A stretch of DNA of 64,000 nt from Bacteroidota bacterium (GTDB taxonomy: Bacteria; Bacteroidota; Bacteroidia; UBA7662; CANHCV01). A program made the position numbers and the translations under genes. The stretch is from assembly GCA_947459245.1 (NCBI GenBank), contig CANHCV010000002.1, forward strand, positions 6,217 to 70,216. Reading direction: 5' to 3'. The number at the start of each line of letters is the position of its first letter. Position 1 is the stretch's first letter. Shown here piece by piece: positions 14,123 through 50,552 of the stretch. A model generated the notes under the pieces. That model saw nothing but the letters and a program-made list of their open reading frames with translations, was not told where the DNA came from and searched no databases.

Positions 14123-14197
14123 TGGGAGCTAAGGGATTCGAACCCCTGACCCTCTGCTTGTAAGGCAGATGCTCTGAACCAGCTGAGCTAAGCTCCC
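14123..14197 (-). tRNA. tRNA-Val (anticodon TAC)
   Basis: The reverse complement GGGAGCTTAGCTCAGCTGGTTCAGAGCATCTGCCTTACAAGCAGAGGGTCAGGGGTTCGAATCCCTTAGCTCCCA folds as a cloverleaf. It has a D-loop AGCTCAGCTGG, an anticodon loop CTTACAA and a T-loop GGTTCGAATCC. Confidence 0.85.
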
Positions 14198-36214: not shown

Positions 36215-37177
36215 GTGAAAAAAGGACTCCTCTTAGCATTTTTTTTCAGCTTGACCTTGGGCTTCCATCCAGAAATGAATGCCTGGGGTTTTCATGCTCA
36301 TAAAATGATCAATCGGTATGCGGTTTTTACGCTCCCAACCGAATTGTTTGGCTTCTACAAAAAGAACATCGATTACATCACCGAACACGCGGTAGATCCC
36401 GATAAGCGTCGTTATGCTATTTTGGAAGAGGGACCTCGACATTTTATTGATATTGATCACTACGGAAGCTATCCTTTCCCTGAACTGCCTCGGGTTTGGG
36501 AAAAGGCCGTGGCTAAATTTTCCGAAGATACCTTGATCGAATACGGCATTGTTCCTTGGAATACCTACAAAGTTTACCGCCAATTGGTGTGGGCATTTTC
36601 TCAGAAAAACGTGGGGCGGATCCTCAAGCTTTCCGCCGACCTCGGGCATTACATCGGTGATGCGCACGTTCCCTTGCACGCCACCAAAAACTACAACGGG
36701 CAATTCACCAATCAGGAAGGCATTCATGGCCTATTGGAATCGCGGTTGCCCGAATTGTTTGCTGCCGACTACGATTTTTTTGTGGGAAAAGCAGAATTCG
36801 TAGATAAACCGCAAGAAGCCATTTGGAATGCCGTTCTGGGCAGCGCAAAATTGGTAGATACCGTGTTTTCTTCCGAAAGAATGACCGGGAAAAGCGTTTC
36901 TCCCCAAGCAAAATATGCTTTCGAAACCAAGGGGAGAACCGTTGCAAAACAGTATTCGAAGGCATATTCTTCCGATTTTCATGCCCGTTTAGGAAGCCTG
37001 GTGGAAGACCGAATGAAATCGTCGATTGTGTTATTGGGAAGTTTGTGGTACTCGGCTTGGGTGGAAGGCGGGCAGCCGAATTTGGATCAATTGGCAGGAA
37101 TTCCAGAGAAGGAAGATATCGTTGCCGATTCGGCTTTTCGAGAAGGGAAAATCAAAGGACGAATCGAAGCCGATTAA
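36215..37177 (+). CDS. Zinc-dependent phospholipase C / S1-P1 nuclease-superfamily protein
   Basis: Signal peptide followed by the mature N-terminal WGFHAHKMI motif, plus His/Asp-rich zinc-ligand motifs (HFIDIDHYG, GDAHVPLHAT). Confidence 0.6.
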   Translation: MKKGLLLAFFFSLTLGFHPEMNAWGFHAHKMINRYAVFTLPTELFGFYKKNIDYITEHAVDPDKRRYAILEEGPRHFIDIDHYGSYPFPELPRVWEKAVAKFSEDTLIEYGIVPWNTYKVYRQLVWAFSQKNVGRILKLSADLGHYIGDAHVPLHATKNYNGQFTNQEGIHGLLESRLPELFAADYDFFVGKAEFVDKPQEAIWNAVLGSAKLVDTVFSSERMTGKSVSPQAKYAFETKGRTVAKQYSKAYSSDFHARLGSLVEDRMKSSIVLLGSLWYSAWVEGGQPNLDQLAGIPEKEDIVADSAFREGKIKGRIEAD

Positions 37178-37238
37178 TTGCAATTTCCGTCCAAATCGCA
37201 GGAATTTCCAGAGGTCGAAGGTTCGTTTTGGACGGATT
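37162..37238. repeat. Left copy of a 77-bp direct repeat flanking the VapBC insertion
   Basis: Identical to 38073-38149 at 75 of 77 positions. It contains the genuine stop of the nuclease-like gene and an orphan copy of the dsbA 3' end. Confidence 0.9.
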
Positions 37239-37291
37239 CTCAGACGGATGAAAGGGCACCTATTGTCAATTTTGCAAAAATAACCACCTGT

Positions 37292-37324
37292 TTACACGTG
37301 CTTATTTACCAAATTTTACACGTG
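37292..37324 (+). promoter_or_regulatory. Putative vapBC promoter/operator: two direct copies of TTACACGTG, each containing the CACGTG palindrome, 24 bp apart
   Basis: tTTACACGTGcttatttaccaaatTTTACACGTGtt lies 40-75 bp upstream of the vapB ATG. Confidence 0.4.
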
Positions 37325-37365
37325 TTACTTGAATCTTTTTCTAACTTTGTGAAAAGACGAACCTC

Positions 37366-37614
37366 ATGAATACAAAACTTACGCTTACCATTGATCATTC
37401 CATCATTGAGAAGGCAAAACGTTATGCACGAGAACAAGAGAGAAGCCTATCCGACTTAATAGAGAATTATCTTAGGGCATTGACCAATGAAAATGCGGTG
37501 GATGACGAAGTTTTGAGTCCCACCATCGAGCAATTGCGTGGTTCATTTAAAATGCCTAAGGATTTTGATTACAAAAAAGAACTCACAGATAGCTTAACAA
37601 AAAAGTTTCTTTGA
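37366..37614 (+). CDS. vapB: VapB-like antitoxin of a type II toxin-antitoxin system
   Basis: An 82-aa protein. The N-terminal KLTLTIDHSIIEKAKRYAREQERSLSDLIENYL is RHH/Phd-like. Its stop lies 2 nt before the PIN-gene ATG. Confidence 0.65.
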   Translation: MNTKLTLTIDHSIIEKAKRYAREQERSLSDLIENYLRALTNENAVDDEVLSPTIEQLRGSFKMPKDFDYKKELTDSLTKKFL

Positions 37615-37616
37615 TC

Positions 37617-38039
37617 ATGAACAAGATCTTCATTGATACGGATGTTATACTTGACTTCTTTTTTGATAGAAAGCCATTTTCTGATGATGCCACTAAGCTT
37701 TTCATTTTATGTGAAAAAAAGATTGTTACTGGTTTCGTAACCCCCGTAATTCTAAGCAATGTGTATTATCTTTTGAGAAAAACTGCAAAACATGAGAAGG
37801 TCATTGAGAAGTTAAAAATGCTCATCAATTTGATCGAAATAGTGACAATTAATAAGGCTACGATTTTAGAAGCTCTAAATTCGGAATTCAAAGATTTTGA
37901 AGATGCATTGCAGAATTATTCTGCACAACACGACAAAGACATTCAAGTCATTGTGACAAGAAACGTCAAAGATTTTAAAGAAAGTCGTTTGTCGGTCATG
38001 ACTCCAGAAACATATTTGAGGATAGGAAACGTCTTCTAG
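37617..38039 (+). CDS. vapC: PIN-domain ribonuclease toxin VapC
   Basis: N-terminal IFIDTDVILDFF with the catalytic Asp, plus downstream acidic residues (NSEFKDFEDALQ..., VTRNVKDF). The ORF-track start at 37611 is a TTG and the ATG is at 37617. Confidence 0.8.
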   Translation: MNKIFIDTDVILDFFFDRKPFSDDATKLFILCEKKIVTGFVTPVILSNVYYLLRKTAKHEKVIEKLKMLINLIEIVTINKATILEALNSEFKDFEDALQNYSAQHDKDIQVIVTRNVKDFKESRLSVMTPETYLRIGNVF

Positions 38040-38072
38040 CAGGAACCAAACTGTTTTAAGGTTAGTTCTCTC

Positions 38073-38149
38073 AATCGAAGCCGATTAATTGCAATTTCCG
38101 TCCAAATCGCAGGAATTTCCAGGGGTTGAAGGTTCGTTTTGGACGGATT
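38073..38149. repeat. Right copy of the 77-bp direct repeat
   Basis: See the left copy. This copy carries the functional dsbA 3' end and an orphan copy of the nuclease-like gene's last codons. Confidence 0.9.
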
Positions 38150-38789
38150 TCCACTCTCCGAACGATTGGCGCAAAGCGCCGGCAAAAACCGAGGCGTCTT
38201 GGGCGCCAGAAACTACGTACTTGTCGTTGAAAACGAAGTGGGGAACGCCCCGAACTCCAACATTTTTCGCTTCGTATTGATCCTGAATCACGTCGTTGGA
38301 ATAAACATCGGATTCGAATAACTCCTGAATTTCAGAATCGGAGATGCCTAAATTCGCACCAATTTCCGAGATAACCTTGGTGTCATCGATGTTTTTTCCT
38401 TCGGAAAAATGGGCCAAAAACAACGCTTCTTCGCAGGCGTGCTGCACGTTCCATTTTTTGGCCAAGTGGCTTAACCGATGAGCTAAAAAGGAATTGGCAA
38501 TCACTTGTCGATCGAAATGCATGGCAATCCCCACCTCTTTGGCCATTTCCGAAACCCGTTGAATCATGGATCGAACGTGTTCCATTGGCATTCCTTTTTC
38601 CTCGGAAAGGTAGTGGTAAATGGACGCTTCAAGATTGGTTTCCAAATCGGGATTCAATTGATAGCTTTTCCAAATGATTTGGATGTTGTCTTTGAATTCC
38701 AAGGATTGTAACGCTTGCTCCAATTTTCGCTTACCAATGTAGCAAAACGGGCACATCACATCGCTCCAAATCTCTACTTTCATGTCCAA
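38085..38789 (-). CDS. DsbA-family thiol-disulfide oxidoreductase (FrnE-like)
   Basis: Thioredoxin-fold active site CPFCY in MKVEIWSDVMCPFCYIGK. Length 234 aa. Confidence 0.8.
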   Translation of the reverse strand: MDMKVEIWSDVMCPFCYIGKRKLEQALQSLEFKDNIQIIWKSYQLNPDLETNLEASIYHYLSEEKGMPMEHVRSMIQRVSEMAKEVGIAMHFDRQVIANSFLAHRLSHLAKKWNVQHACEEALFLAHFSEGKNIDDTKVISEIGANLGISDSEIQELFESDVYSNDVIQDQYEAKNVGVRGVPHFVFNDKYVVSGAQDASVFAGALRQSFGEWKSVQNEPSTPGNSCDLDGNCN

Positions 38790-40502
38790 TTATCTTCCCA
38801 TGGAAACCAAAAACTCTTCGTTGCTGATGGTGCCTTTCATTTGCGACAACAAGAATTCCATGGCTTCGGTGTTGCTCATGTCGTTCAAGTGGTTGCGAAG
38901 GATGTACATGCGTTGAAGTACTTCTTTGCGGTGCAACAAATCGTCGCGTCGGGTGGAAGAGGTCATCACGTCGATGGCAGGATAGATGCGGCGGTTCGAA
39001 AGTTTACGATCGAGCTGCAATTCCATGTTTCCGGTTCCTTTGAATTCCTCGAAAATTACTTCATCCATTTTACTTCCGGTGTCGATCAACGCCGTGGCAA
39101 TGATGGTAAGAGAACCGCCGTTTTCGATGTTACGAGCAGCTCCAAAAAATCGCTTGGGTTTGTGCAAGGCATTGGCGTCAACCCCACCCGAAAGAATCTT
39201 TCCGGATGCAGGAGCAACGGTATTGTAAGCCCTTGCCAATCGCGTAATGGAATCCAAAAGAATCACTACATCGTGTCCGCTTTCCACCATTCTTTTGGCT
39301 TTTTCGAGCACCATGCTGGCAACTTTTACGTGTTTATCGGCCGGTTCGTCGAAGGTAGAAGCGATCACTTCTCCTTTTACGCTTCGGGCCATATCGGTTA
39401 CTTCTTCTGGTCGTTCGTCGATCAAAAGAACAATCATGTAGGTTTCGGGATGGTTGCGGGCGATGGCGTTGGCCACGCTTTTTAGAAGCATGGTTTTACC
39501 CGTTTTGGGTTGCGCTACAATGAGTCCGCGCTGCCCTTTTCCGATGGGAGAAAAAAGGTCGAGAATGCGACAAGAATAATCGTTCGCCTGATCGGCTAAG
39601 TTGAATTTTTCGTCGGGGAAAACCGGGGTTAAGTAATCGAAAGGAACACGTTCCCGTACTTCTGTAGGGTTTTTCCCATTGATGCTATCAACGCGTACCA
39701 GAGCAAAATAACGTTCTCCTTCTTTGGGTGGACGCAATGAACCTACTACCGTATCGCCCGTTTTTAGTCCGTAATTGCGGATTTGGTTCGGGGAAACGTA
39801 CACATCATCGGGAGAGGAAAGGTAATTATAATCGGAGGAACGCATGAAGCCGTAGCCTTCCGACATGATTTCCACCACGCCTTCGTGCATGATGAGGTTA
39901 TCGAAATTGTATTGATCCAGGGCGTGGTTTTTGGGACCATTATTGCGTTGGGGATGTTGGTGTTGGTGATGCGGATGTGGTCGCGACTCTGGATTATTCT
40001 CCGTTGGGTTTTGATCGGATTTTGGTTCTTGTTGTTTGCCTTCCGGACGTGGAGAAAATCCGCGGTTTTCCCGATTTTCCTGTGGTTTACGCTCTTCAGA
40101 TTTGGGTAAATCGGAAGGGTTCCTGGGACGTTTTTCGAATCGATTGGGGCGTTTTTCAGGGGTTCCTTCAGATGCTGCTACTTCCGAAGTGGTAGGAGCC
40201 TCTGAAACCGGAGTGGCTGGAACGGTTACCTCCTCTTTATCCATTCTCCTTCTTTTCGTTGTTTTTTCGATTCCTGCTTCTGCAGCAGGTTTTTCATCCG
40301 AAAAAAGAGTGGGTTTTTCTTCTTTGGAGAAACGTGAACGTTTGGGCTTTTCTTCTGCTGGTGCTGGTGCGGTGCTTTTGTTTCCAGAAATGGCTTCAAT
40401 CAAAGCATCTTTTTTAAGAGAGAAGAAATTCTCCAAGTTCAATTCATCCGCAATGATTCTCAAATCTTTGAGAGATTTCGCTTTTAAATCATTTAAATTC
40501 AA
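38790..40502 (-). CDS. rho: Transcription termination factor Rho with a long low-complexity N-terminal insertion
   Basis: The C-terminal RecA-type ATPase ([20 protein letters not shown], Walker A) and the OB/CSD region are conserved. About 230 aa of K/E/P/R-rich sequence, including [10 protein letters not shown], lies between the N-terminal helix and the CSD. Confidence 0.9.
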
Positions 40503-40651
40503 TCCAAAAAATTTTAGGAGTAGGTGGAAAACAGGAAATTAATTGATGGAAGGACTCCAAAAGAAATGCACCGAAAATGGCGCTTGGAGAAATCCGACGT
40601 GCAATGATACAACGGAAAAAGGAATTTCGACCAATATTGACAAAAATCTTT

Positions 40652-41797
40652 TTAAAAAGCTTCATTCACACGGACATACCATCCAGAACCGCCTTCGCGG
40701 TTGATGGCATAATCCAATCGAAGGATGGTTCGACTTCCTTCGGAGACCTTGTAGCGAAGTCCAATTCCTCCGGCAATTTTCCAGGGAGAATTGCCAAAGT
40801 TTTTCCAGGTTTCGCCCACTTGCCCGGCTGAGGCGAAAGCTTGAAAGCCGAATTGATTGGGGAAGGTGTGTCGAATTTCCGCTTGTGCGGCTGCGTAGGA
40901 ATAATCGCGGTAACGACCGCGGAAATAGCCGCGAAGGATTCGATCGCCACCCAGGGTGGGAATGAATTGGAAGGCGGCTCCCTTGGAGGTTTGATCCAAG
41001 TAAAGCTGGGTTGCGAGCACGGTTTGGGAACGAAGAAGGGGAGTAGCCCAGCGCAGGTCGGTTCGAATTCGGGTGAAAGGATGGGTGTTCGCACCGTTGT
41101 TGGCTGCGTTGAGGTATTGAACCTCCCAAAACCAACCCGAACTTTGAACAAATTGATGGTCGCGGGTATCGATGATGCTGCTGAGTCCAATCGCAAGGTT
41201 TTTACTGCCTTCGGCTCCAGGAGCGGTGCGATTGGCCAAGGCGCCATTTCCGGAAATGACCGAGATATTCCTCAAATCGTAGTACCAGCCAATTCCTCCC
41301 AAATAACAATTTTTCCGCCATTGCCATTGCGCTTGTTGGAACCAAAAAGAGCGTTGAAATCGAAACGTTTCCAAATCCGATTCCCGTTGATTTCCGCCAA
41401 TCCCATAGTATTTGTCGTAAAAATCATCCACATTGATGTTTCCACGAAGAAAGATTTTCCCCTTAGCAAAGAGTAGATGATGGTTCAACTCCAACAAGGT
41501 CTGTTTTTTTGTGGTATGAATGAGTGAGAGGTAAATGGTTGAAAACCTTTTTTTGGTCGAATCAACGTACTCGATAGGGTTGAAACGGTACAAGGTTCCC
41601 AAACCAAATGCAGCCCCATTTTCAGGCGTGCGATAGAAAACCGGTGTTGGGAAAATATGCAAACTGTCGGGCGCAGGAAGCCATTTTGGGTAGGGAATAA
41701 CCCCTTGGGTAAATCCGAAAAGAGGAAACAACAAAACCAAGATGAAGGAGCAAAATCTTATGCCCATACCTTGGTTCCTTCCGTGCAATTGGTGCAA
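40652..41797 (-). CDS. Outer-membrane beta-barrel protein (Omp85/BamA-barrel-like). The start is probably the internal Met at 41767.
   Basis: Signal peptide MGIRFCSFILVLLFPLFGFTQ, amphipathic beta-strands and a C-terminal aromatic-rich end (...GWYVRVNEAF). Confidence 0.5.
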   Translation of the reverse strand: MHQLHGRNQGMGIRFCSFILVLLFPLFGFTQGVIPYPKWLPAPDSLHIFPTPVFYRTPENGAAFGLGTLYRFNPIEYVDSTKKRFSTIYLSLIHTTKKQTLLELNHHLLFAKGKIFLRGNINVDDFYDKYYGIGGNQRESDLETFRFQRSFWFQQAQWQWRKNCYLGGIGWYYDLRNISVISGNGALANRTAPGAEGSKNLAIGLSSIIDTRDHQFVQSSGWFWEVQYLNAANNGANTHPFTRIRTDLRWATPLLRSQTVLATQLYLDQTSKGAAFQFIPTLGGDRILRGYFRGRYRDYSYAAAQAEIRHTFPNQFGFQAFASAGQVGETWKNFGNSPWKIAGGIGLRYKVSEGSRTILRLDYAINREGGSGWYVRVNEAF

Positions 41798-42882
41798 ATG
41801 TCGATTTCTGATCGGGATTTAATGATGGATTTTCGGAACGACTGGTAGGAAGGGCCTTTCCATACTTCTTTAAAGGTGTTGTTTTTCACTTGCCCCAATT
41901 TGTGGCTTGCATCTTTATCAAAACAACAGGGCACCACCCAGCCGTCCCAGGTAATTACTGCACTGTGCCAAAGTCGCCAACAATGATTGATGAGGGTATT
42001 TTTGATGGAATACGACCCGTCTTTGTTTTTTCGATATCGGCTAAACTTTTCATTTTTTGGAATGAGGGGTGAGCCGTGCTGATAATCGTAAATCTGAGCC
42101 GTTTTAAATTTTACTTCATCCACGCCCAACGAATTTGCCAATTGAACTACTTCCTCCATTTGGTGTTCGTTGGGGCCCACCACCAAGAATTGAAAAATGA
42201 TGGTTGGGGTGGCAGATTTGAGTTTTTTTCGGGCTTCGATGAGGTTTTTCGTTCCCTCGATCACTTGAGAAAGGTTTCCTTCTTTTCGGTATTGCTCGTA
42301 CACCTCTTGGGTGGTCCCATCGATGGAAATGATGCAACGATCGAGCCCACTTTGAACGGTTTTTTCCGCAGTTTCGGGGTCGAAAAAGTGGGCATTGGTG
42401 GAGGTAGCGGTGTAAACGCCTTGGGAATGCGCTTTCCGAATCATTTCCAACAATTGTTTGTTCAGGAAGGGTTCTCCTTGAAAGTAAAAAATGAGGTAAG
42501 AAAGCGATGGAGCGAGCTCTTGAAGAACGGTATCGAAAAAATCGGACTTTAAATTGCCCTGATCTCGGGTGAACGAACGCAGGCCGCTGGGGCATTCAGG
42601 GCAACGAAGGTTGCAAGCCGTGGTGGGTTCGATGGAAATGGAAATGGGGTTTCCCCAGTGGATGGGTTTTTTAAGGGCTTTGGAAAGCAGGTAGGAAACG
42701 ACCACGAGGAACATGTTCCAAACACGACGTGGAGTTTGTTTGGAAATCCACCGAATTGAATCTTTCCAATTTTTCACCCGGTAAAGGTACGATGGGAAAC
42801 CCTGAAAAATTTGTTTCTTTGCAAAGTGAAACGCATCTTGTTTTTCGGAATGATGTTTTGGGTTTTGGGCGTTTCCGCCCAA
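41758..42882 (-). CDS. Radical SAM enzyme with a C-terminal SPASM / auxiliary-cluster Cys motif. The start is uncertain.
   Basis: The CxxxCxxC triad reads CNLRCPEC. There is a C-terminal Cys cluster (VVPCCFDKD...ICTNCTEG). The 5' end overlaps a divergent gene, so an internal Met around 42714 is more likely. Confidence 0.75.
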   Translation of the reverse strand: MGGNAQNPKHHSEKQDAFHFAKKQIFQGFPSYLYRVKNWKDSIRWISKQTPRRVWNMFLVVVSYLLSKALKKPIHWGNPISISIEPTTACNLRCPECPSGLRSFTRDQGNLKSDFFDTVLQELAPSLSYLIFYFQGEPFLNKQLLEMIRKAHSQGVYTATSTNAHFFDPETAEKTVQSGLDRCIISIDGTTQEVYEQYRKEGNLSQVIEGTKNLIEARKKLKSATPTIIFQFLVVGPNEHQMEEVVQLANSLGVDEVKFKTAQIYDYQHGSPLIPKNEKFSRYRKNKDGSYSIKNTLINHCWRLWHSAVITWDGWVVPCCFDKDASHKLGQVKNNTFKEVWKGPSYQSFRKSIIKSRSEIDICTNCTEGTKVWA

Positions 42883-43689
42883 ACGGTCGATTCTTCTCGG
42901 GTCGATTCCTTATCGGTGACCGATTCTTTGTTGGTTATGGAACCCGTTCAAGAAGCTAAGGTTGAGGATACCTTATTGGAGCCAACGTATTGGAATTTGA
43001 AGGAGAAGAAGGTGGAGATGAAAGCCGTTCGCGTTCCTCCTGGCAACCGCACGGGCTATTTTATTTGGGCCTTGATGTCGCTCTTGTTGGGGGTGATCGG
43101 GTATTGGATGAACGAGGTCTATTTCAACAAAATTGGATATTCATTGATCAATGTTCGGTTTGCCGAGGAGTTTTTTAGGGATTACAAGAAACGACTATCG
43201 GTGGGGTTATTGAATTTGGATTTGAGTTGGGTGATTGGTTTTTCCATTTGGATCGATTATTTTTTAATTTCGAGAGGCATTGAATTTCCATTGGTGGCTC
43301 TGGTAGGAATCGTTGGTGGAGTTTATTGGATGAAGCGGCAATGGATTTGGATCTTGGGGAAAGCTACGCGAATGGATGATACGGGCGAGTATTATTTGTT
43401 TTCGTTGTTCAATTATTTTCGTTGGATTGCGCCGTTGTTGGGGGTTTGTTCTTTATTCTTGGTGTTTTTCAATCAGGAAAAATGGATGAATTGGGGTGGA
43501 ATTCGTTTGGAGGAAATTATTTTTTGGGCGATTCCATTTTTTTGGGCCATTTCCTTTGTTTTTCGGTTGTTTCGGGTTTTGTTTCGGTTTACATCGAAGG
43601 GAGTTGGTGTTTTCTTGCGTTTTCTTTTTTACTTTTGCGTTTTGGAAATTATTCCAACCTTGGTTTTGATTAAATGGTTTTGGAGATGA
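42850..43689 (+). CDS. DUF4271-like polytopic membrane protein
   Basis: Signal/TM segment MMFWVLGVSAQ followed by multiple TM helices. Its stop overlaps the hemD ATG (ATGA at 43686-43689). The ORF-track start at 42811 is a TTG. Confidence 0.55.
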   Translation: MMFWVLGVSAQTVDSSRVDSLSVTDSLLVMEPVQEAKVEDTLLEPTYWNLKEKKVEMKAVRVPPGNRTGYFIWALMSLLLGVIGYWMNEVYFNKIGYSLINVRFAEEFFRDYKKRLSVGLLNLDLSWVIGFSIWIDYFLISRGIEFPLVALVGIVGGVYWMKRQWIWILGKATRMDDTGEYYLFSLFNYFRWIAPLLGVCSLFLVFFNQEKWMNWGGIRLEEIIFWAIPFFWAISFVFRLFRVLFRFTSKGVGVFLRFLFYFCVLEIIPTLVLIKWFWR

Positions 43690-44438
43690 GTAAACCGAAT
43701 CCGGTTCGTAGCGTATTAATTGCCCAACCTGCACCTGAAGCAGCGAATCCCTATCAGGGGATCATCGATCGCTTCAAGTTGAAGGTTGATTTTCGGGCAT
43801 TTCACCACGTTGAAGGGATTTCAGCGAAAGATTTTCGGAAGCAGAAGATCGAGATTAAGGATTACAACGCTATTGTATTTACAAGTAAGAATTCCATCGA
43901 CCATTTCTTTCGTTTGTGTGGGGATTTCAAGCACGAAATGCCCATTGATGCAAAATATTTTTGCACGAGCGAGGCCATTGCGCTGTACATGCAGAAATAC
44001 ATTCAGATGCGGAAGCGCAAAGTGTTTTTCGGCAAGGGAAGTTTGAACGACATTCTTCCATACTTTCAAAGGCACAAAGCAGAGAAGTTTTTGATGCCGA
44101 TTTCGGAACAATCGTTGAGCGACTTCAATCTGACCTTCGAAACGGCGGGAATCGATTTAACCAAGGCCATCATGTTCAAAACCGCCATCAGCGATTTGAG
44201 TGATTTGGCGGATGTTAAATACGACGTTCTGTGTTTTTTTAGTCCCACTGGAATTGAATCGTTGTTTAAGAACTTCCCAGATTTTAAACAAGAGAAAACA
44301 AGAATTTCGGTTTTTGGCCCAACCACCCGCAAGTCTGCCGAAGATAACCAGTTGGTTGTAAATGTTTACGCCCCAGAACCCGGTGTTCCGAGCATGGCAA
44401 AAGCCATCGAAAATTACATTCTTTCTTTAGGGAAGTAA
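43686..44438 (+). CDS. hemD: Uroporphyrinogen-III synthase
   Basis: HemD fold of about 250 aa (NAIVFTSKNSIDHFF... and VLCFFSPTGIESLF). Confidence 0.7.
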   Translation: MSKPNPVRSVLIAQPAPEAANPYQGIIDRFKLKVDFRAFHHVEGISAKDFRKQKIEIKDYNAIVFTSKNSIDHFFRLCGDFKHEMPIDAKYFCTSEAIALYMQKYIQMRKRKVFFGKGSLNDILPYFQRHKAEKFLMPISEQSLSDFNLTFETAGIDLTKAIMFKTAISDLSDLADVKYDVLCFFSPTGIESLFKNFPDFKQEKTRISVFGPTTRKSAEDNQLVVNVYAPEPGVPSMAKAIENYILSLGK

Positions 44439-44526
44439 GGCAAATTTTCAGAAAAAATCTTTCCACTTTTTTTTCTATCGGGAAAATCATCTATCTTAGC
44501 ACACCTTCCAACTAAAGAAAAACCAA

Positions 44527-45480
44527 ATGAGAAAGGTTACCCTCCTCTTATTCGTTGCTGTTGCTTCCATGATTTCCACTGTGGGTTTCGCCCAACAGGA
44601 CTGGAAATTCAATCAATATGCCCTCAATGGCATGGGTTTTAATCCGGCCTTTACCGGTTTAGGAACCAACATTTCTGCTACCGGTTTGTACCGGAATCAA
44701 TACATGGGATTAGCGGATTTCAATCCGACCTCGAGAAATTTTAACATTCACTCCAAAGTGAACAAGGTAAAAGGAGGTTTGGGCTTAAATATTCTAGACG
44801 ACGAATACGGTTTAGAAAAGTTTACCGGGGTTTATTTGTCGTATGCTTACCACAAAGACAATGTTTTGCCTTTCGAAGGAACCCTTTCTGCTGGAATTAG
44901 TGTTGGAATGCTTCAAATCTCAAGTCAGTTCAGTAAACTAAATCCCAGAACCAACCCTGATCCAATTTTGGTAACTTCAGATATCAGTGGTTTTGGATTA
45001 GATGTAAATGCAGGGTTGCTGTTTACCGCACCCAATTATTATGTTGGAATTTCTGCAACACACCTAACCAATCCAAATGTAGAGTTGCAAAACAATGCTT
45101 CCGTGAACATGCAACCCCACTTATTTATTACTGGTGGTTACACGTACAAGCTCAACGAAAAAATTAATTTGATGCCTTCAGTTTTGATCAAGTCAATTGT
45201 GAAAAAATCCCAATTTGATTTTTCGACCATTGGGATGTATTCCAACAAGTATTGGGGTGGACTTGGGTATTCCACTTCCGATGCAATTTACTTGTTGGCT
45301 GGAGGTTATTTAAAAGGAAATCAATCAGATGGAGGATTGAAATTAGGAGTTTCTTACGGTGCTACCATGAATAAGTTGGGCAGCATTGGAGGACGAAACA
45401 GCGTTGAGGCGATGTTGGGTTACAACTTCAAAATTCAAATTCCTGTTAAAATTCCACCTACCGACCCCATATTTCATTGA
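44527..45480 (+). CDS. porP: PorP/SprF-family T9SS outer-membrane protein
   Basis: Signal peptide, then QQDWKFNQYALNGMGFNPAFTG, which is the PorP/SprF family N-terminal signature. It is a beta-barrel of about 315 aa located immediately upstream of gldK. Confidence 0.8.
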   Translation: MRKVTLLLFVAVASMISTVGFAQQDWKFNQYALNGMGFNPAFTGLGTNISATGLYRNQYMGLADFNPTSRNFNIHSKVNKVKGGLGLNILDDEYGLEKFTGVYLSYAYHKDNVLPFEGTLSAGISVGMLQISSQFSKLNPRTNPDPILVTSDISGFGLDVNAGLLFTAPNYYVGISATHLTNPNVELQNNASVNMQPHLFITGGYTYKLNEKINLMPSVLIKSIVKKSQFDFSTIGMYSNKYWGGLGYSTSDAIYLLAGGYLKGNQSDGGLKLGVSYGATMNKLGSIGGRNSVEAMLGYNFKIQIPVKIPPTDPIFH

Positions 45481-45553
45481 TAGTTGGAGTTTTTGTTTTG
45501 TATTTTTCCACTCTGTTAAAAACATCGATCACTAGTAGTTGTAAATGATACTT

Positions 45554-46798
45554 ATGAAGAGACTTGCTCTTTTTTCTTTAACGCTTTTCGGCATGGTTGC
45601 CTTAAGCAGTTGTGGTGGCTCCGGAAATGGGGAGCTTATCGGGGTACAAGGTCGTGAGGCCTATTTCCCAGGAGAACCTTATGGAATGGTATTTGTACCA
45701 CAAGGAAATTTCCAGGCTGGGCAAAGCGATCAGGACGTGATGTTCTCGCTTAATGCGCCTACCAAAACCGTTTCAGTTGGAGCGTTCTATATGGATGAAA
45801 CTGAAATTACGAACAACGAGTACCGTCAGTTCGTTCAATGGGTTGCAGATTCCATCGCTCATACCAAATTGAACCACATCAAAGAAGGTCCTGCCGGTGA
45901 AAAGTTCATCGATTGGGAACAAGAAATTAAGTGGAACGATGAGGCGTTGAAAGACATGTTCTATGCTGGCGATGACCAAGTATTCGGAAAACAAGAATTG
46001 GATGTTCGCAAGTTGACCTATTTGTACCAGTGGTACGATTTGAACAATGCTGCTCATAACAAGGATGTAACTGCAAAACGCAACAAGTTCATTGTTCGCG
46101 ATTCGGTTTACGTTTATCCTGATACGCTTTGTTGGACTCGCGATTTCGCGTACAGCTACAACGAGCCGATGACTCAGAACTATTACAGCCACCCAGCTTA
46201 CGATGATTATCCTGTCGTTGGTGTGAACTGGAATCAGGCAAATGCTTTCTGCTCTTGGAGAACCGACTATGTGAATACCTTCCGTCGTGAAAACAAAGAG
46301 GTTGAAGCCCCACCGTACCACTTGCCAACAGAATGGCAATTTGAATACGCTGCTCGTGGTGGTTTGAATACTTCTCCTTATCCTTGGGGTGGTCCTTACA
46401 TCCGTAACGATAAAGGATGTTTCTTGGCTAACTTCAAACCCGGCCGTGGTAACTACACCGATGATGGTGGTCACTACACCGTTAAAGTTTACAGCTACAA
46501 TCCTAACGATTTCGGACTTTATAACATGTCTGGTAACGTTGCTGAGTGGACCCTTACTTCTTACGAAGAATCTGTTTACAGCACCGTTCACGATATGAAT
46601 CCAGATTTCCGTTACCAGCGCAAAAAAGGAGACGACATTGTTCGCACTCGTAAAGTTATCCGCGGTGGATCTTGGAAAGATGCTGCTCACATGTTGCGCG
46701 TTTCTACCCGCGACTTTGAATACCAAGACACTTCCAAAAGTTACATTGGCTTCCGTTGTATCCAAGATTTCTTGGGCCGTTCCATGGAAGACTTTTAA
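45554..46798 (+). CDS. gldK: Gliding motility / T9SS lipoprotein GldK (PorK) with an FGE-sulfatase-like domain
   Basis: Lipobox LALFSLTLFGMVALSSC and the SUMF1/FGE-fold motif RGGSWKDAAHMLRVSTR. It is followed by gldLMN. Confidence 0.9.
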   Translation: MKRLALFSLTLFGMVALSSCGGSGNGELIGVQGREAYFPGEPYGMVFVPQGNFQAGQSDQDVMFSLNAPTKTVSVGAFYMDETEITNNEYRQFVQWVADSIAHTKLNHIKEGPAGEKFIDWEQEIKWNDEALKDMFYAGDDQVFGKQELDVRKLTYLYQWYDLNNAAHNKDVTAKRNKFIVRDSVYVYPDTLCWTRDFAYSYNEPMTQNYYSHPAYDDYPVVGVNWNQANAFCSWRTDYVNTFRRENKEVEAPPYHLPTEWQFEYAARGGLNTSPYPWGGPYIRNDKGCFLANFKPGRGNYTDDGGHYTVKVYSYNPNDFGLYNMSGNVAEWTLTSYEESVYSTVHDMNPDFRYQRKKGDDIVRTRKVIRGGSWKDAAHMLRVSTRDFEYQDTSKSYIGFRCIQDFLGRSMEDF

Positions 46799-46852
46799 TC
46801 AGAGAAATAACAAATAAAAAAATAAAAAGTAAAACATTTAAAACACAAAACT

Positions 46853-47515
46853 ATGTCAGGTGGTAATTTCATGACTTCCAAAAAAGGAAAAACAATCTTA
46901 GGATATGCATATGCCTGGGGTGCTGCGGTAGTAATCTTGGGTGCGTTATTCAAAATCATGCACTGGAAAGGCGCTTCTGAAATGTTAATTATTGGTATGG
47001 GTACTGAGGCGGTTATCTTCTTCGTTTCTGCTTTCGAACCTGTACACATGGAAATCGATTGGTCTTTGGTTTATCCTGAATTGAAAGGTTCTGGAGCTGA
47101 TCCATCCAAGAAATCAAAATCAGTAACTGAGCAATTGGATGACATGCTTGGCAAGTCTAAAGTTGGAACTGAATTGATCGATTCTTTAGGAAAAGGAATG
47201 ACCAACTTGAGCGATACCGTTGGAAAAATGTCGAAATTGGGTGATGCTTCTGTAGCAACTCAAGAGTTTTCTACCAACGTTAAAACTGCAGCTGGTTCTG
47301 TTTCTGCTTTCAACAACATTACCGTTGAAGCTGGTGGAAAAATTTCTGAAATGACCAAAGCTTACGGTGGTGTTGCTAACTCTATCGCTACTTTGAACGC
47401 TGCTGCTGCTGATGCAGAAGTGTACAAAGCAGAGTTGAGCAAGTTGACTTCTAACTTGAAGAACTTGAACAACATCTACGGCGGTATGTTGTCTGCAATG
47501 ACCGGTAATAAATAA
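46853..47515 (+). CDS. gldL: Gliding motility / T9SS protein GldL (PorL)
   Basis: Two N-terminal TM helices (GAAVVILGALFKIMHWKG, LIIGMGTEAVIFFVSAF) and a cytoplasmic coiled region. About 220 aa. Confidence 0.9.
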   Translation: MSGGNFMTSKKGKTILGYAYAWGAAVVILGALFKIMHWKGASEMLIIGMGTEAVIFFVSAFEPVHMEIDWSLVYPELKGSGADPSKKSKSVTEQLDDMLGKSKVGTELIDSLGKGMTNLSDTVGKMSKLGDASVATQEFSTNVKTAAGSVSAFNNITVEAGGKISEMTKAYGGVANSIATLNAAAADAEVYKAELSKLTSNLKNLNNIYGGMLSAMTGNK

Positions 47516-50184: not shown

Positions 50185-50552
50185 TGGTGGACCCGGAGGG
50201 AGTCGAACCCTCGTCCGGAGCTGATCTTCACAGGCGATCTACATGCTTAGTTGCATCTTGCTTTTCGTGAATGAACCGGCAATGCAACGGCCTACTCATT
50301 CCTTATCCCTTTGATCTCGGAACCTTTAAGGGCGTGGAAGTTCCTATCTCCTGCATACTGGACCCGGTCGACCCGCCGGCAGGAGCCATGGGCAGGTGCG
50401 TAGGGTACTAGTGCGTTAATCCTAGATTAAGCAGCTAGTGCGTAGTTGTTGTTGCCAGTTAAAGGCTGAAGGTTCAGATTAACGTGCATTTCCAACAAGG
50501 CACGGCATGCACACAAGCAAAGGCGTCAACCCGTCGATTCCGGTCGGGCCCC
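50185..50552 (-). ncRNA. ssrA: Transfer-messenger RNA (tmRNA, ssrA), about 368 nt
   Basis: On the minus strand the 5' end reads GGGGCCCGACCGGAATCGACGGG. The tag reading frame reads ...GNNNYALAA* (stop at plus 50427-50429). The 3' end reads GGACGAGGGTTCGACTCCCTCCGGGTCCACCA, giving a T-arm, a G3-U wobble in the acceptor stem and a CCA end. Confidence 0.85.

Follow-up and report, generated by a model that had tools for sequence, protein, structure and literature searches.

In the window, by which we refer to the whole analyzed stretch of 64,000 nucleotides, ORF calls and translations place a gene for a radical-SAM enzyme and a gene for an Omp85-type outer-membrane beta-barrel on the minus strand, with an overlap of 10 nt (Table 1). 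An overlapping pair of this kind had been noticed in an earlier, sequence-only reading of the DNA, and indeed both ORFs are present, with the stop codon of the radical-SAM gene lying inside the barrel ORF. Since many homologs exist for each of them, both can be regarded as real genes. For the signal-peptide barrel gene two starts had been offered (41797 or 41767), of which the ATG at 41767 is the most likely as judged from the translations, since close homologs open with MG[IVLM]RF. The start of the radical-SAM gene is most likely the predicted GTG at 42777, because homologs are approximately 340 aa long and their conserved N-terminus aligns from this codon; a start at TTG 42882 would add 35 unconserved residues and would create an overlap with a divergently oriented DUF4271 gene.

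Table 1. Features of the radical-SAM/barrel locus, given as window positions.
Feature	Position	Strand	Basis or detail
Radical-SAM open frame	41758-42882	-	374 aa counted from TTG 42882
Radical-SAM/Twitch enzyme gene (predicted type), 339 aa	41758-42777	-	most likely start GTG 42777; internal ATG 42714
CNLRCPEC, CX3CX2C motif (C55, C59, C62)	42592-42615	-	translation
Predicted Twitch-type (truncated SPASM) auxiliary-cluster domain	41773-41994	-	cysteines C266, C284, C285, C328, C331
Radical-SAM/barrel gene overlap, 10 nt	41758-41767	-	radical-SAM TAA 41760-41758; barrel ATG 41767-41765
Barrel open frame	40652-41797 (TTG) or 40652-41767 (ATG)	-	ORF call
Predicted POTRA-less ('noNterm') Omp85-family barrel gene, 371 aa	40652-41767	-	Pfam Omp85, AF2 model, Foldseek; most likely start ATG 41767
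Predicted Sec signal peptide of the barrel, MGIRFCSFILVLLFPLFGFTQG	41702-41767	-	sequence features; translation
RGY loop-6 motif, in LGGDRILRGYFRGRYRD (LRGYF)	40925-40933	-	translation
Spacer from barrel stop to rho start, 149 nt	40503-40651	-	terminator scan; no Rfam match

The pair is flanked by the DUF4271 gene, a HemD-like gene and rho in a tightly packed locus, and a gene for a GldK-like protein of the FGE-sulfatase family is found 2.8 kb from the radical-SAM gene. The spacer between the barrel gene and rho, which is probably the rho leader, shows DNA-level conservation that is limited to close relatives and contains a weak terminator-like hairpin (40583-40568). An Rfam search of positions 38000-45000 (E ≤ 1) yielded no riboswitch or other RNA, the sole match being a chance hit to Xist. 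A scan for sigma-70 promoters gave one match compared to 2.6 expected, with a scan model that is ill-suited to Bacteroidota promoters. A recent horizontal acquisition of the barrel gene was considered and rejected, as its GC and GC3 values match those of its neighbors; the composition of both genes is that of the surrounding ones and carries no trace of recent acquisition.

The assignment of the first gene to the radical-SAM enzymes is based on the Pfam Radical_SAM model (58.3 bits, cutoff 29.5) and on the CNLRCPEC motif that had already been pointed out and was located here. CX3CX2C motifs ligate the radical-SAM [4Fe-4S] cluster, and the three cysteines are unchanged in 91 out of 91 aligned members of the family. 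A partial TIM-barrel core fold and a GGE-like SAM-binding motif are present as well. In the AF2 model (pLDDT 83.5) two helices, together approximately 45 aa long, precede this core; a function of the N-terminal helix as membrane anchor was rejected by eye, as it is amphipathic, contains K/S/T/N/Q throughout the homologs and is confidently modelled. Neither an RRE/PqqD-like domain (Pfam) nor a signal peptide was found in the enzyme.

The C-terminal region had been described as Cys-rich and SPASM-like. This holds true insofar as the domain belongs to the SPASM family, with the shorter Pfam SPASM model being passed at 63.2 bits, but it corresponds to a truncated version: only five C-terminal cysteines are invariant in the family, the first of them 18 residues ahead of the second, and the region contains neither a CX2CX5CX3C motif nor the seven or eight cysteines of SPASM proper. 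The model TIGR04085 remained under its cutoff (26.1 bits vs. 27) and aligned at positions 5-65 of 93 only; the best-scoring model for the domain was NF033640 ('twitch domain'). Twitch domains are truncated SPASM domains with one auxiliary cluster and four cysteine ligands in the order C...C...CxxC (PMC9012708). Among solved structures, the closest one by sequence is BtrN, the 2-deoxy-scyllo-inosamine dehydrogenase of the butirosin pathway and founding Twitch-domain radical-SAM enzyme (PDB 4M7T, E 7.5e-19), and the profile of our enzyme places its PCC opposite PC and its CTNC/CxxC opposite CKNC of the BtrN Twitch domain. Based on the five invariant cysteines, the match to BtrN and the TIGR04085 score, the enzyme is classified as Twitch-type without a full SPASM domain, its cluster content being predicted from the cysteines. 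It shares only about 17-21% identity with BtrN, is longer (339 aa vs. approximately 250 aa) and possesses two additional N-terminal helices as well as an insert (residues about 228-262). Furthermore, BtrN is part of an antibiotic gene cluster, whereas the enzyme studied here is found phylum-wide as a stand-alone protein and has no aminocyclitol pathway genes nearby.

In the classification by HMMs, which had been suggested as a check, no NCBIfam model reached its cutoff. The best matches were TIGR04317 ('tungsten cofactor oxidoreductase radical SAM maturase') and TIGR04311, both putative metalloenzyme maturases defined in silico. To our knowledge, neither of these families has been characterized experimentally. 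The alignment to TIGR04317 is nearly full-length (ORF residues 82-367 of 374, model positions 6-314 of 349), however, the score falls far short (128 bits vs. 380) and no aldehyde:ferredoxin oxidoreductase gene is located nearby. The models for anSME, PqqE, MftC, AhbD/NirJ, MoaA, HpnH and sactisynthases were all far under cutoff. That the enzyme acts as an anSME-like maturase of neighboring FGE-sulfatase-family proteins of the GldK/GldJ type, or of sulfatases, appears very unlikely. The GldK-like gene in the window would suit such a role, as would the fact that anSME is both a fold and a sequence match of the enzyme. However, the anSME models scored 16-22 bits against cutoffs of 349-484 (e.g., TIGR03942 with 18 vs. 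349 and NF010321 with 21.7 vs. 441), and the cysteine census revealed a single set of auxiliary-cluster ligands, which leaves none for the second cluster of anSME. In addition, the gld cluster lies beside the radical-SAM gene in the window's clade only and is absent from this position in 80 other genomes.

The radical-SAM family comprises at least 8000 homolog protein clusters of approximately 340 aa that carry generic names only, and an ortholog is present in at least 598 species genomes. Identities of 58-66% are maintained across Cytophagales, Chitinophagales, Saprospiraceae, Flavobacteriales and Sphingobacteriales, with a mean column identity of 75%. Neither NCBIfam nor the searchable literature assigns a function to the family. 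A neighbor shared by the orthologs was not detected when 8 kb to the left and to the right of the gene were inspected in 80 loci, the commonest family occurring in 12 of them. TPR, Lnb-like and PD40 proteins were the commonest neighbor families, and all recurrent neighbors (TPR, Lnb-like, PD40/OmpA-like, inositol monophosphatase and RecX) are clade-specific. By these comparisons, the enzyme of the window is the local ortholog of a phylum-wide, strongly conserved, stand-alone and predicted housekeeping-like cytoplasmic enzyme, and the family appears to be an unstudied and near-universal one in Bacteroidota. The lack of a conserved neighbor within the phylum makes it probable that the enzyme acts on a ubiquitous cellular molecule rather than on a peptide encoded nearby.

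The same distribution bears on the question of whether the enzyme might act as a RiPP or peptide maturase whose precursor has gone unrecognized, for example a darobactin-like peptide directed against BamA, with the barrel serving as decoy or immunity BamA. It is generally known that darobactin is the product of a radical-SAM/SPASM enzyme and targets BamA, and the SPASM/Twitch structural group to which our enzyme belongs is rich in peptide maturases, with SuiB, SkfB, CteB and PqqE being among its fold matches. However, phylum-wide identities of 60-65% combined with ever-changing neighbors are not expected for a gene of a biosynthetic cluster, none of the named RiPP maturase models came near its cutoff, and the five C-terminal cysteines, the TIGR04085 score and the lack of an RRE domain speak against it as well. 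Small ORFs of 15-90 aa were searched between positions 38000 and 45600, including the divergent region 42715-42850 that had been singled out for such a check, and yielded neither Cys/Gly-rich sequences nor plausible precursors. The only small ORFs at the locus lie in the spacer ahead of rho or in the divergent promoter, and their apparent conservation is of the DNA-level type, since all frames are conserved and this among close relatives only. A scan for the darobactin-like W-x-W-x-K/R motif matched only within large genes or out-of-frame junk, and no such core was found in the small ORFs outside large genes. Thus, the locus and 2 kb on either side of it contain no precursor candidate of the kind a RiPP maturase would be expected to have, in accordance with the earlier impression that no short precursor ORF lies adjacent. 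The neighboring genes also include no companion peptidase or ABC exporter (ORF list, Pfam). Taking the barrel for a decoy of this kind is hence hardly credible, and the RiPP/maturase interpretation is largely refuted.

The second gene of the pair encodes a protein that is recognized by the Pfam Omp85 model with about 38 bits (37.9, cutoff 24), and NF047779 scored 68.8 bits compared to a cutoff of 200. Its AF2 model shows 16 strands at moderate confidence (pLDDT 69), and in a Foldseek search with this model the barrels of TamA, BamA and Sam50 were the top matches (E about 1e-10 to 1e-9), i.e., the nearest solved folds, with an E value of 3e-10 for the TamA barrel 4N74. An N-terminal helix of low pLDDT (residues 2-13) coincides with the predicted signal peptide, the first barrel strand starts right after it at residue 36, and no POTRA domain was matched by Pfam in the protein. 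A loop-6 motif of the form (V/I)RG(F/Y) is a hallmark of Omp85 barrels, and alignment A2 shows no variation at R279, G280 and Y281. The protein ends with ...VNEAF, and thus with a Phe. BamA and TamA likewise possess the RGY loop-6 motif and an aromatic residue at the C-terminus, but the protein has no POTRA domains and only 12-13% identity to them. Together with the NF047779 score, these differences make it unlikely that the protein is the essential BamA of the cell.

According to the structural model, the protein is a POTRA-less 'noNterm' Omp85 that is predicted to consist of signal peptide and barrel only. The noNterm class is defined by Omp85 barrels without a periplasmic N-terminal domain (Heinz & Lithgow 2014, PMC4104836), and its members resemble the barrel analyzed here in their 16 strands, the lack of POTRA or other periplasmic domains and their occurrence in Bacteroidota (PMC4104836; PMC11358297). 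Examples are LIC12252/12254/12258 from Leptospira and their Cytophagales orthologs (Bettin et al. 2024, PMC11358297). One noNterm subset is marked by DUF5982 (IPR046024), which was matched neither in the window's barrel nor in three relatives at E ≤ 1, with a copy of Pfam that may lack this model. Gene neighborhoods of noNterm Omp85s from Bacteroidetes vary (PMC11358297; PMC4104836), and a position directly behind a radical-SAM gene has no precedent in these reports. The description of the pair as a new combination is in line with the searchable literature, which contains no account of a radical-SAM/Omp85 pair.

Co-occurrence of the two genes in other genomes turned out to be a feature of one clade only. 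In a neighbor-joining tree of the radical-SAM enzyme, the loci with the pair fall into a single clade, made up of the window's relatives and one diverged lineage with different flanks. Within this clade the adjacency is still present where identity falls to 65% for the enzyme and 39% for the barrel. Start/stop overlaps of 4-13 nt also occur in the relatives L081, L085 and L087, the last of which retains pair and overlap though both flanks are wholly different. In other Bacteroidota, a barrel gene near the radical-SAM ortholog was found in none of 80 loci, neither by tblastn nor by profile HMM, and 76 of these barrel-free loci had at least 1.2 kb of sequence downstream of the radical-SAM gene. 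A word-indexed search retrieved only 10 relatives of the barrel, and more distant ones were collected by a metagenome scan with a 6-sequence barrel alignment. The radical-SAM gene was not located beside any of the distant relatives (0 of 21 loci; 26-33% identity, with 900 nt or more of sequence available upstream), and seven of these loci show another conserved upstream partner. Adjacency across independent lineages, as it would characterize a conserved system of enzyme and barrel, was therefore not observed.

The sequence-only reading had suggested that the pair may couple a periplasmic or outer-membrane substrate to a radical-SAM modification. This proposal largely fails: the enzyme is phylum-wide and has no barrel gene beside it in 80 of 80 loci, all 21 distant barrel relatives are without it as neighbor, and the enzyme itself has no signal peptide, RRE/PqqD-like domain or full SPASM domain. 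A well-characterized housekeeping enzyme or an unconserved pairing had been named as outcomes speaking against the proposal; the family is indeed housekeeping-like and the pairing limited to one clade, although the enzyme is not a well-characterized one.

Nevertheless, the retention of a 4-13 nt overlap over this divergence is more than a juxtaposition without meaning would lead one to expect, and it would fit with selection acting on co-expression. Should the genomes with the pair contain a further copy of the radical-SAM gene, the copy beside the barrel might be a specialized paralog. A functional link between enzyme and barrel inside the pair clade is improbable on the whole. It might take the form of a clade-specific module in which the cytoplasmic enzyme makes or modifies a lipid, glycan precursor or protein destined for the envelope, with the barrel, recruited to the housekeeping enzyme by this clade, inserting or exporting the product at the outer membrane; we consider this unlikely. 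Similarly doubtful is the idea that translational coupling of the two genes reflects barrel-dependent delivery or handling of a cytoplasmically modified, envelope-bound molecule. Such a module would be consistent with the same-strand adjacency and overlap throughout the clade, including L087 with its different flanks, with the co-transcription that the overlap implies, and with a barrel gene that is long resident by its composition. However, start/stop overlaps are generally known to be common in operons of unrelated genes, the enzyme occurs without the barrel in all 80 other genomes examined, and barrel relatives manage without the enzyme. Moreover, the two proteins belong to different compartments, and neither an inner-membrane transporter nor a periplasmic component is encoded beside the pair.

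We therefore favor the view that these are two independent genes for which co-transcription and translational coupling arose in a single lineage of Bacteroidota, a view to which we assign a probability of roughly 0.7, and the pair is most likely a lineage-specific co-transcribed juxtaposition. It does not constitute a RiPP or maturase system, nor does the radical-SAM enzyme have an obligate partner in the barrel. For the enzyme, the CX3CX2C cluster would cleave SAM and the resulting 5'-deoxyadenosyl radical would abstract a hydrogen atom from the substrate. The predicted single C-terminal auxiliary [4Fe-4S] cluster would be held by four cysteine ligands as in BtrN and, by analogy, would most plausibly accept the electron freed in a two-electron oxidation. 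The barrel protein, on its part, would be exported via Sec and then inserted into the outer membrane.

If the two genes did form a functional unit, this would be the first link of radical-SAM chemistry with an Omp85-family barrel and the first functional handle on the POTRA-less Omp85 class, yet the evidence argues against it. As the genes are adjacent in one lineage only, the locus has the appearance of an ordinary operon of local extent rather than of a novel RiPP or maturase system. Its remaining value lies in the very large, strongly conserved and stand-alone family of Twitch-type radical-SAM enzymes in Bacteroidota, which represents, in Flavobacterium or Cytophaga, a reasonable target for genetics.

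Two head-to-tail ORFs on the minus strand of the window, which stems from a Bacteroidota genome, encode a radical-SAM protein (rSAM) and, overlapping with it, an Omp85-type outer-membrane beta-barrel protein. The sequence-only reading had described two overlapping genes in this order, which Pfam searches and inspection of the sequence confirmed with small corrections. The stop codon TAA of the rSAM gene (41760-41758) falls within the barrel ORF, and both genes are almost certainly co-transcribed. For rSAM, the same reading had followed the frame up to 42882, but a start at TTG 42882 would add 35 unconserved residues as well as an overlap with the divergent DUF4271 gene. GTG 42777 fits the homologs of approximately 340 aa, whose conserved N-terminal residues D6, K13, T15, R18, and N21 align from this codon, so that a start at ATG 42714 would be too short. 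Of the two barrel starts considered before, ATG 41767, giving a 10-nt overlap with rSAM, is favored over TTG 41797, since close homologs of the barrel open with MG[IVLM]RF.

Features of the window in and around the overlapping gene pair
Feature	Position	Strand	Evidence or remark
rSAM ORF	stop 41758, frame open to TTG 42882	-	Pfam Radical_SAM 58.3 bits, SPASM 63.2 bits
CNLRCPEC motif of rSAM	42592-42615	-	sequence
rSAM residue 273 (Ala)	~41959-41961	-	
rSAM residue 335 (Thr)	~41773-41775	-	
Barrel ORF	40652 to TTG 41797 or ATG 41767	-	Pfam Omp85 38 bits
20-aa ORF	42774-42836		rejected as precursor
Spacer upstream of rho	40503-40651		149 nt
rho	38790-40502	-	570 aa
DUF4271 to GldL-like block	42811-47515 and beyond		
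DUF6364 gene	37366-37614	+	toxin-antitoxin-like pair
PIN_3 gene	37611-38039	+	toxin-antitoxin-like pair
Direct repeats, 77 nt	37162-37238 and 38073-38149		flank insertion; 97% identical
tmRNA gene	50185-50551	-	Rfam, 143.7 bits
tRNA gene	14123-14197	-	Rfam

The assignment of the second gene to an Omp85-like barrel with signal peptide held up. Sequence inspection predicts a Sec-type signal peptide, MGIRFCSFILVLLFPLFGFTQG, in the 371-aa protein, and the AF2 model, although of moderate confidence (pLDDT 69), contains 16 predicted strands, the first of which begins at residue 36, almost directly after the signal peptide. The Omp85 loop-6 motif RGY, located within LGGDRILRGYFRGRYRD, is invariant among relatives, the C-terminal end reads ...VNEAF, and Foldseek returned the barrels of TamA and BamA as well as Sam50 (E about 1e-10 to 1e-9). 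Neither the Pfam search nor the AF2 model revealed a POTRA domain. The protein is thus a member of the Omp85 superfamily, namely of the class lacking POTRA or other periplasmic N-terminal domains, called noNterm (Heinz and Lithgow, PMC4104836), and is neither BamA nor TamA; the DUF5982 signature, which marks one noNterm subset, gave no match in the window protein.

The C-terminal region of rSAM had been described as Cys-rich and SPASM-like. It does match the SPASM family in Pfam, but in an alignment of 91 family members only C266, C284, C285, C328, and C331 are invariant C-terminal cysteines, the CX2CX5CX3C element of the full SPASM domain is missing, and the SPASM model TIGR04085 gives 26.1 bits, below its cutoff of 27, over no more than the first two thirds of the model. 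The isolated domain had the 'twitch domain' model NF033640 as its top match, and a search of the family profile against all PDB sequences placed BtrN first (E 7.5e-19), the alignment extending over core and Twitch domain, with PCC matched to PC and CTNC to CKNC. The auxiliary cluster of BtrN has four Cys ligands, an arrangement which rSAM resembles. Judged from its sequence, the C-terminal domain is therefore of the Twitch type and falls outside the full SPASM definition. Additional cysteines occur at position 273 in 75% and at position 335 in 36% of the 91 members, where the window protein carries Ala and Thr, respectively; with as many as seven cysteines in the C-terminal part, some members might accommodate another auxiliary cluster, which is not possible in the clade of the window protein.

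In terms of classification, rSAM is outside every named family: besides the Pfam matches to Radical_SAM and SPASM, its top NCBIfam match was TIGR04317 with 128 bits (cutoff 380). The family itself is large, with at least 8000 protein candidates matching at E <= 1e-5, the best 120 of which are 318-402 aa long (mostly ~340) and are annotated in general terms only, for instance as 'SPASM domain-containing protein' or 'radical SAM protein'. With each species represented by one genome, a scan yielded at least 598 loci with 58-65% identity to the window protein, among them Roseivirga, Dyadobacter, Hymenobacter, Pontibacter, Chitinophaga, Lewinella, Saprospiraceae, Salibacter, and Sphingobacteriaceae. 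The mean column identity among 14 members of different orders was 75%, compared to 73-87% for Rho among closer relatives, and conservation of rSAM is accordingly at housekeeping level. No description of the family was found in the literature, the coverage of this search being incomplete.

The AF2 model of rSAM is good (pLDDT 83.5, pTM 0.85) but points to no specific function. Since only two helices of together ~45 residues precede its core, an RRE/PqqD-like leader-binding domain is lacking. The second of these helices was considered as a membrane span and rejected, being amphipathic and of too little hydrophobicity. In agreement with the sequence-only reading, no plausible precursor ORF was found beside rSAM by ORF and motif scans, including the divergent 42715-42850 region. 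The locus is tightly packed, non-coding DNA being limited to ~33-70 nt at the divergent promoter, assigned by sequence inspection, and 149 nt before rho, and these stretches contain no Cys/Gly-rich small ORFs. Small ORFs at the locus are kept in several overlapping frames alike and in close relatives only, so that it is the DNA that is conserved; the same applies to a 20-aa ORF in the region singled out by the sequence-only reading, which was rejected as precursor and is not Cys/Gly-rich. A scan for darobactin-type W-x-W-x-K/R motifs gave nothing usable, and Rfam yielded no match at the locus. Interpretations of rSAM as a RiPP, darobactin-like, or anSME-like enzyme are each highly improbable.

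Co-occurrence of the two genes in other genomes, which the sequence-only reading had itself named as a test, turned out to be confined to one clade. Of the rSAM loci, at least 598 in number, the best 80 were analyzed with flanks of up to 8 kb on either side, 76 of them extending 1.2 kb or more downstream of rSAM; neither tblastn (E <= 1e-5) nor a barrel-family profile HMM (E <= 1e-3) found a relative of the barrel in any of these 80. Sensitivity was adequate, as the same barrel query picks up relatives of 26-33% identity with E-values of 1e-25 to 1e-43. Conversely, rSAM adjoined none of the 21 distant barrel relatives (26-33% identity) with at least 900 nt upstream, namely L088 and 20 from a metagenome scan that yielded 36 loci. 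The order DUF4271, divergent rSAM and barrel, then rho recurs in L089-L091 (rSAM 90-91%, barrel 82% identity), L085/L086 (88 and 72%; overlap 10 nt), and L081-L083 (74 and 51%; overlap 13 nt), while L087 (65 and 39%; overlap 4 nt) has unrelated flanks with a holB-like gene upstream and Rv0495c-like, S21, and integrase genes downstream. In a quick neighbor-joining distance tree of 91 rSAM sequences, calculated without support values, the pair-bearing loci together make up a single clade, in which L087 branches deepest; its sister group consists of two Flavobacteriales loci without barrel. This is most simply explained by the two genes having come together once and then been inherited vertically. 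GC and GC3 of the barrel gene are in line with those of its neighbors, so that it is no recent arrival. We therefore consider the juxtaposition to be a lineage-specific operon arrangement (probability roughly 0.7), in preference to the previously proposed coupling of an rSAM modification to a periplasmic or outer-membrane substrate. A functional link within the pair-bearing clade is unlikely; what speaks for it is that the two genes still overlap in L087, where both flanks have been rearranged. Literature searches, incomplete in coverage, brought up no account of an rSAM-Omp85 pair.

Overall, rSAM has no conserved neighbor at all: in clustering of nearby ORFs the commonest family, itself clade-specific, occurred in 12 of 80 loci, and recurrent neighbors were TPR, Lnb-like, and PD40 proteins. 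In seven Saprospiraceae/Lewinellaceae loci (L007, L036, L041, L049, L061, L067, L075) the rSAM ortholog lies ~2.5-3.5 kb downstream of a PorP/SprF-like gene, in several of them with a PD40/OmpA-like 672-aa gene in between; L061 and four other loci carry a very large adhesin-like ORF further upstream. PorP/SprF is also found within 2 kb of rSAM in the window, so this proximity exists in two lineages; as each arrangement is clade-specific, it is probably a coincidence. On the barrel side, 7 of the 21 distant loci (L088, 5324-5998; L096, L098, L099, L101, L102, L105) have a conserved, small-barrel-like ORF of ~226 aa directly upstream on the same strand, with signal peptide and C-terminal Phe and in one case a weak DUF3575 match, so that a two-barrel gene pair may recur in this noNterm Omp85 subfamily.

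According to Pfam and NCBIfam, the pair is surrounded by PorP/SprF, GldK-like, GldL-like, rho, and dsbA-like genes and a DUF4271/HemD-like pair, with the full gldK-L-M-N cluster in close relatives. The order DUF4271, HemD-like, PorP/SprF, GldK-like, GldL-like is kept in the window's clade; DUF4271 and HemD-like genes overlap by 16 nt, and the latter (uroporphyrinogen-III synthase family) heads the gld/T9SS core cluster. Rho has an N-terminal low-complexity region of ~170 residues with a high content of P, E, K, Q, and H. The spacer upstream of its gene, whose DNA sequence is conserved among close relatives, contains a weak hairpin with a T-tract after it and may serve as leader or autoregulatory element of rho. 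A 911-bp insertion within 37162-38149 carries an AT-rich DUF6364/PIN_3 pair (GC 0.33-0.37 vs. 0.44 for the window); in the flanking repeats, the junction between the ends of the convergent Zn-phospholipase-C-like and dsbA-like genes is duplicated, and in L085/L086 these two genes abut without insert. This looks like a recent mobile toxin-antitoxin cassette insertion with target duplication. The tmRNA and tRNA genes were the only matches at Rfam gathering scores in the window.

The SAM-cluster motif of rSAM is canonical and its auxiliary cysteines, four or five in number, form a BtrN-like set; in its mode of action the protein would resemble Twitch-type radical-SAM enzymes such as BtrN. Following the example of BtrN and its relatives (review: PMC9012708), the presumably cytoplasmic protein would cleave SAM reductively and abstract a hydrogen atom from its substrate in a two-electron oxidation, the resulting electron going to the auxiliary cluster. 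The barrel would reside in the outer membrane, as a representative of the poorly understood noNterm proteins. Since rSAM is phylum-wide, stand-alone, and very highly conserved, its substrate is expected to be ubiquitous in the cell and not the product of a gene cluster. The two genes are further members of known protein classes in a lineage-specific arrangement, and the most useful outcome is the recognition of a Twitch radical-SAM protein that is apparently near-universal in Bacteroidota and has no assigned function.
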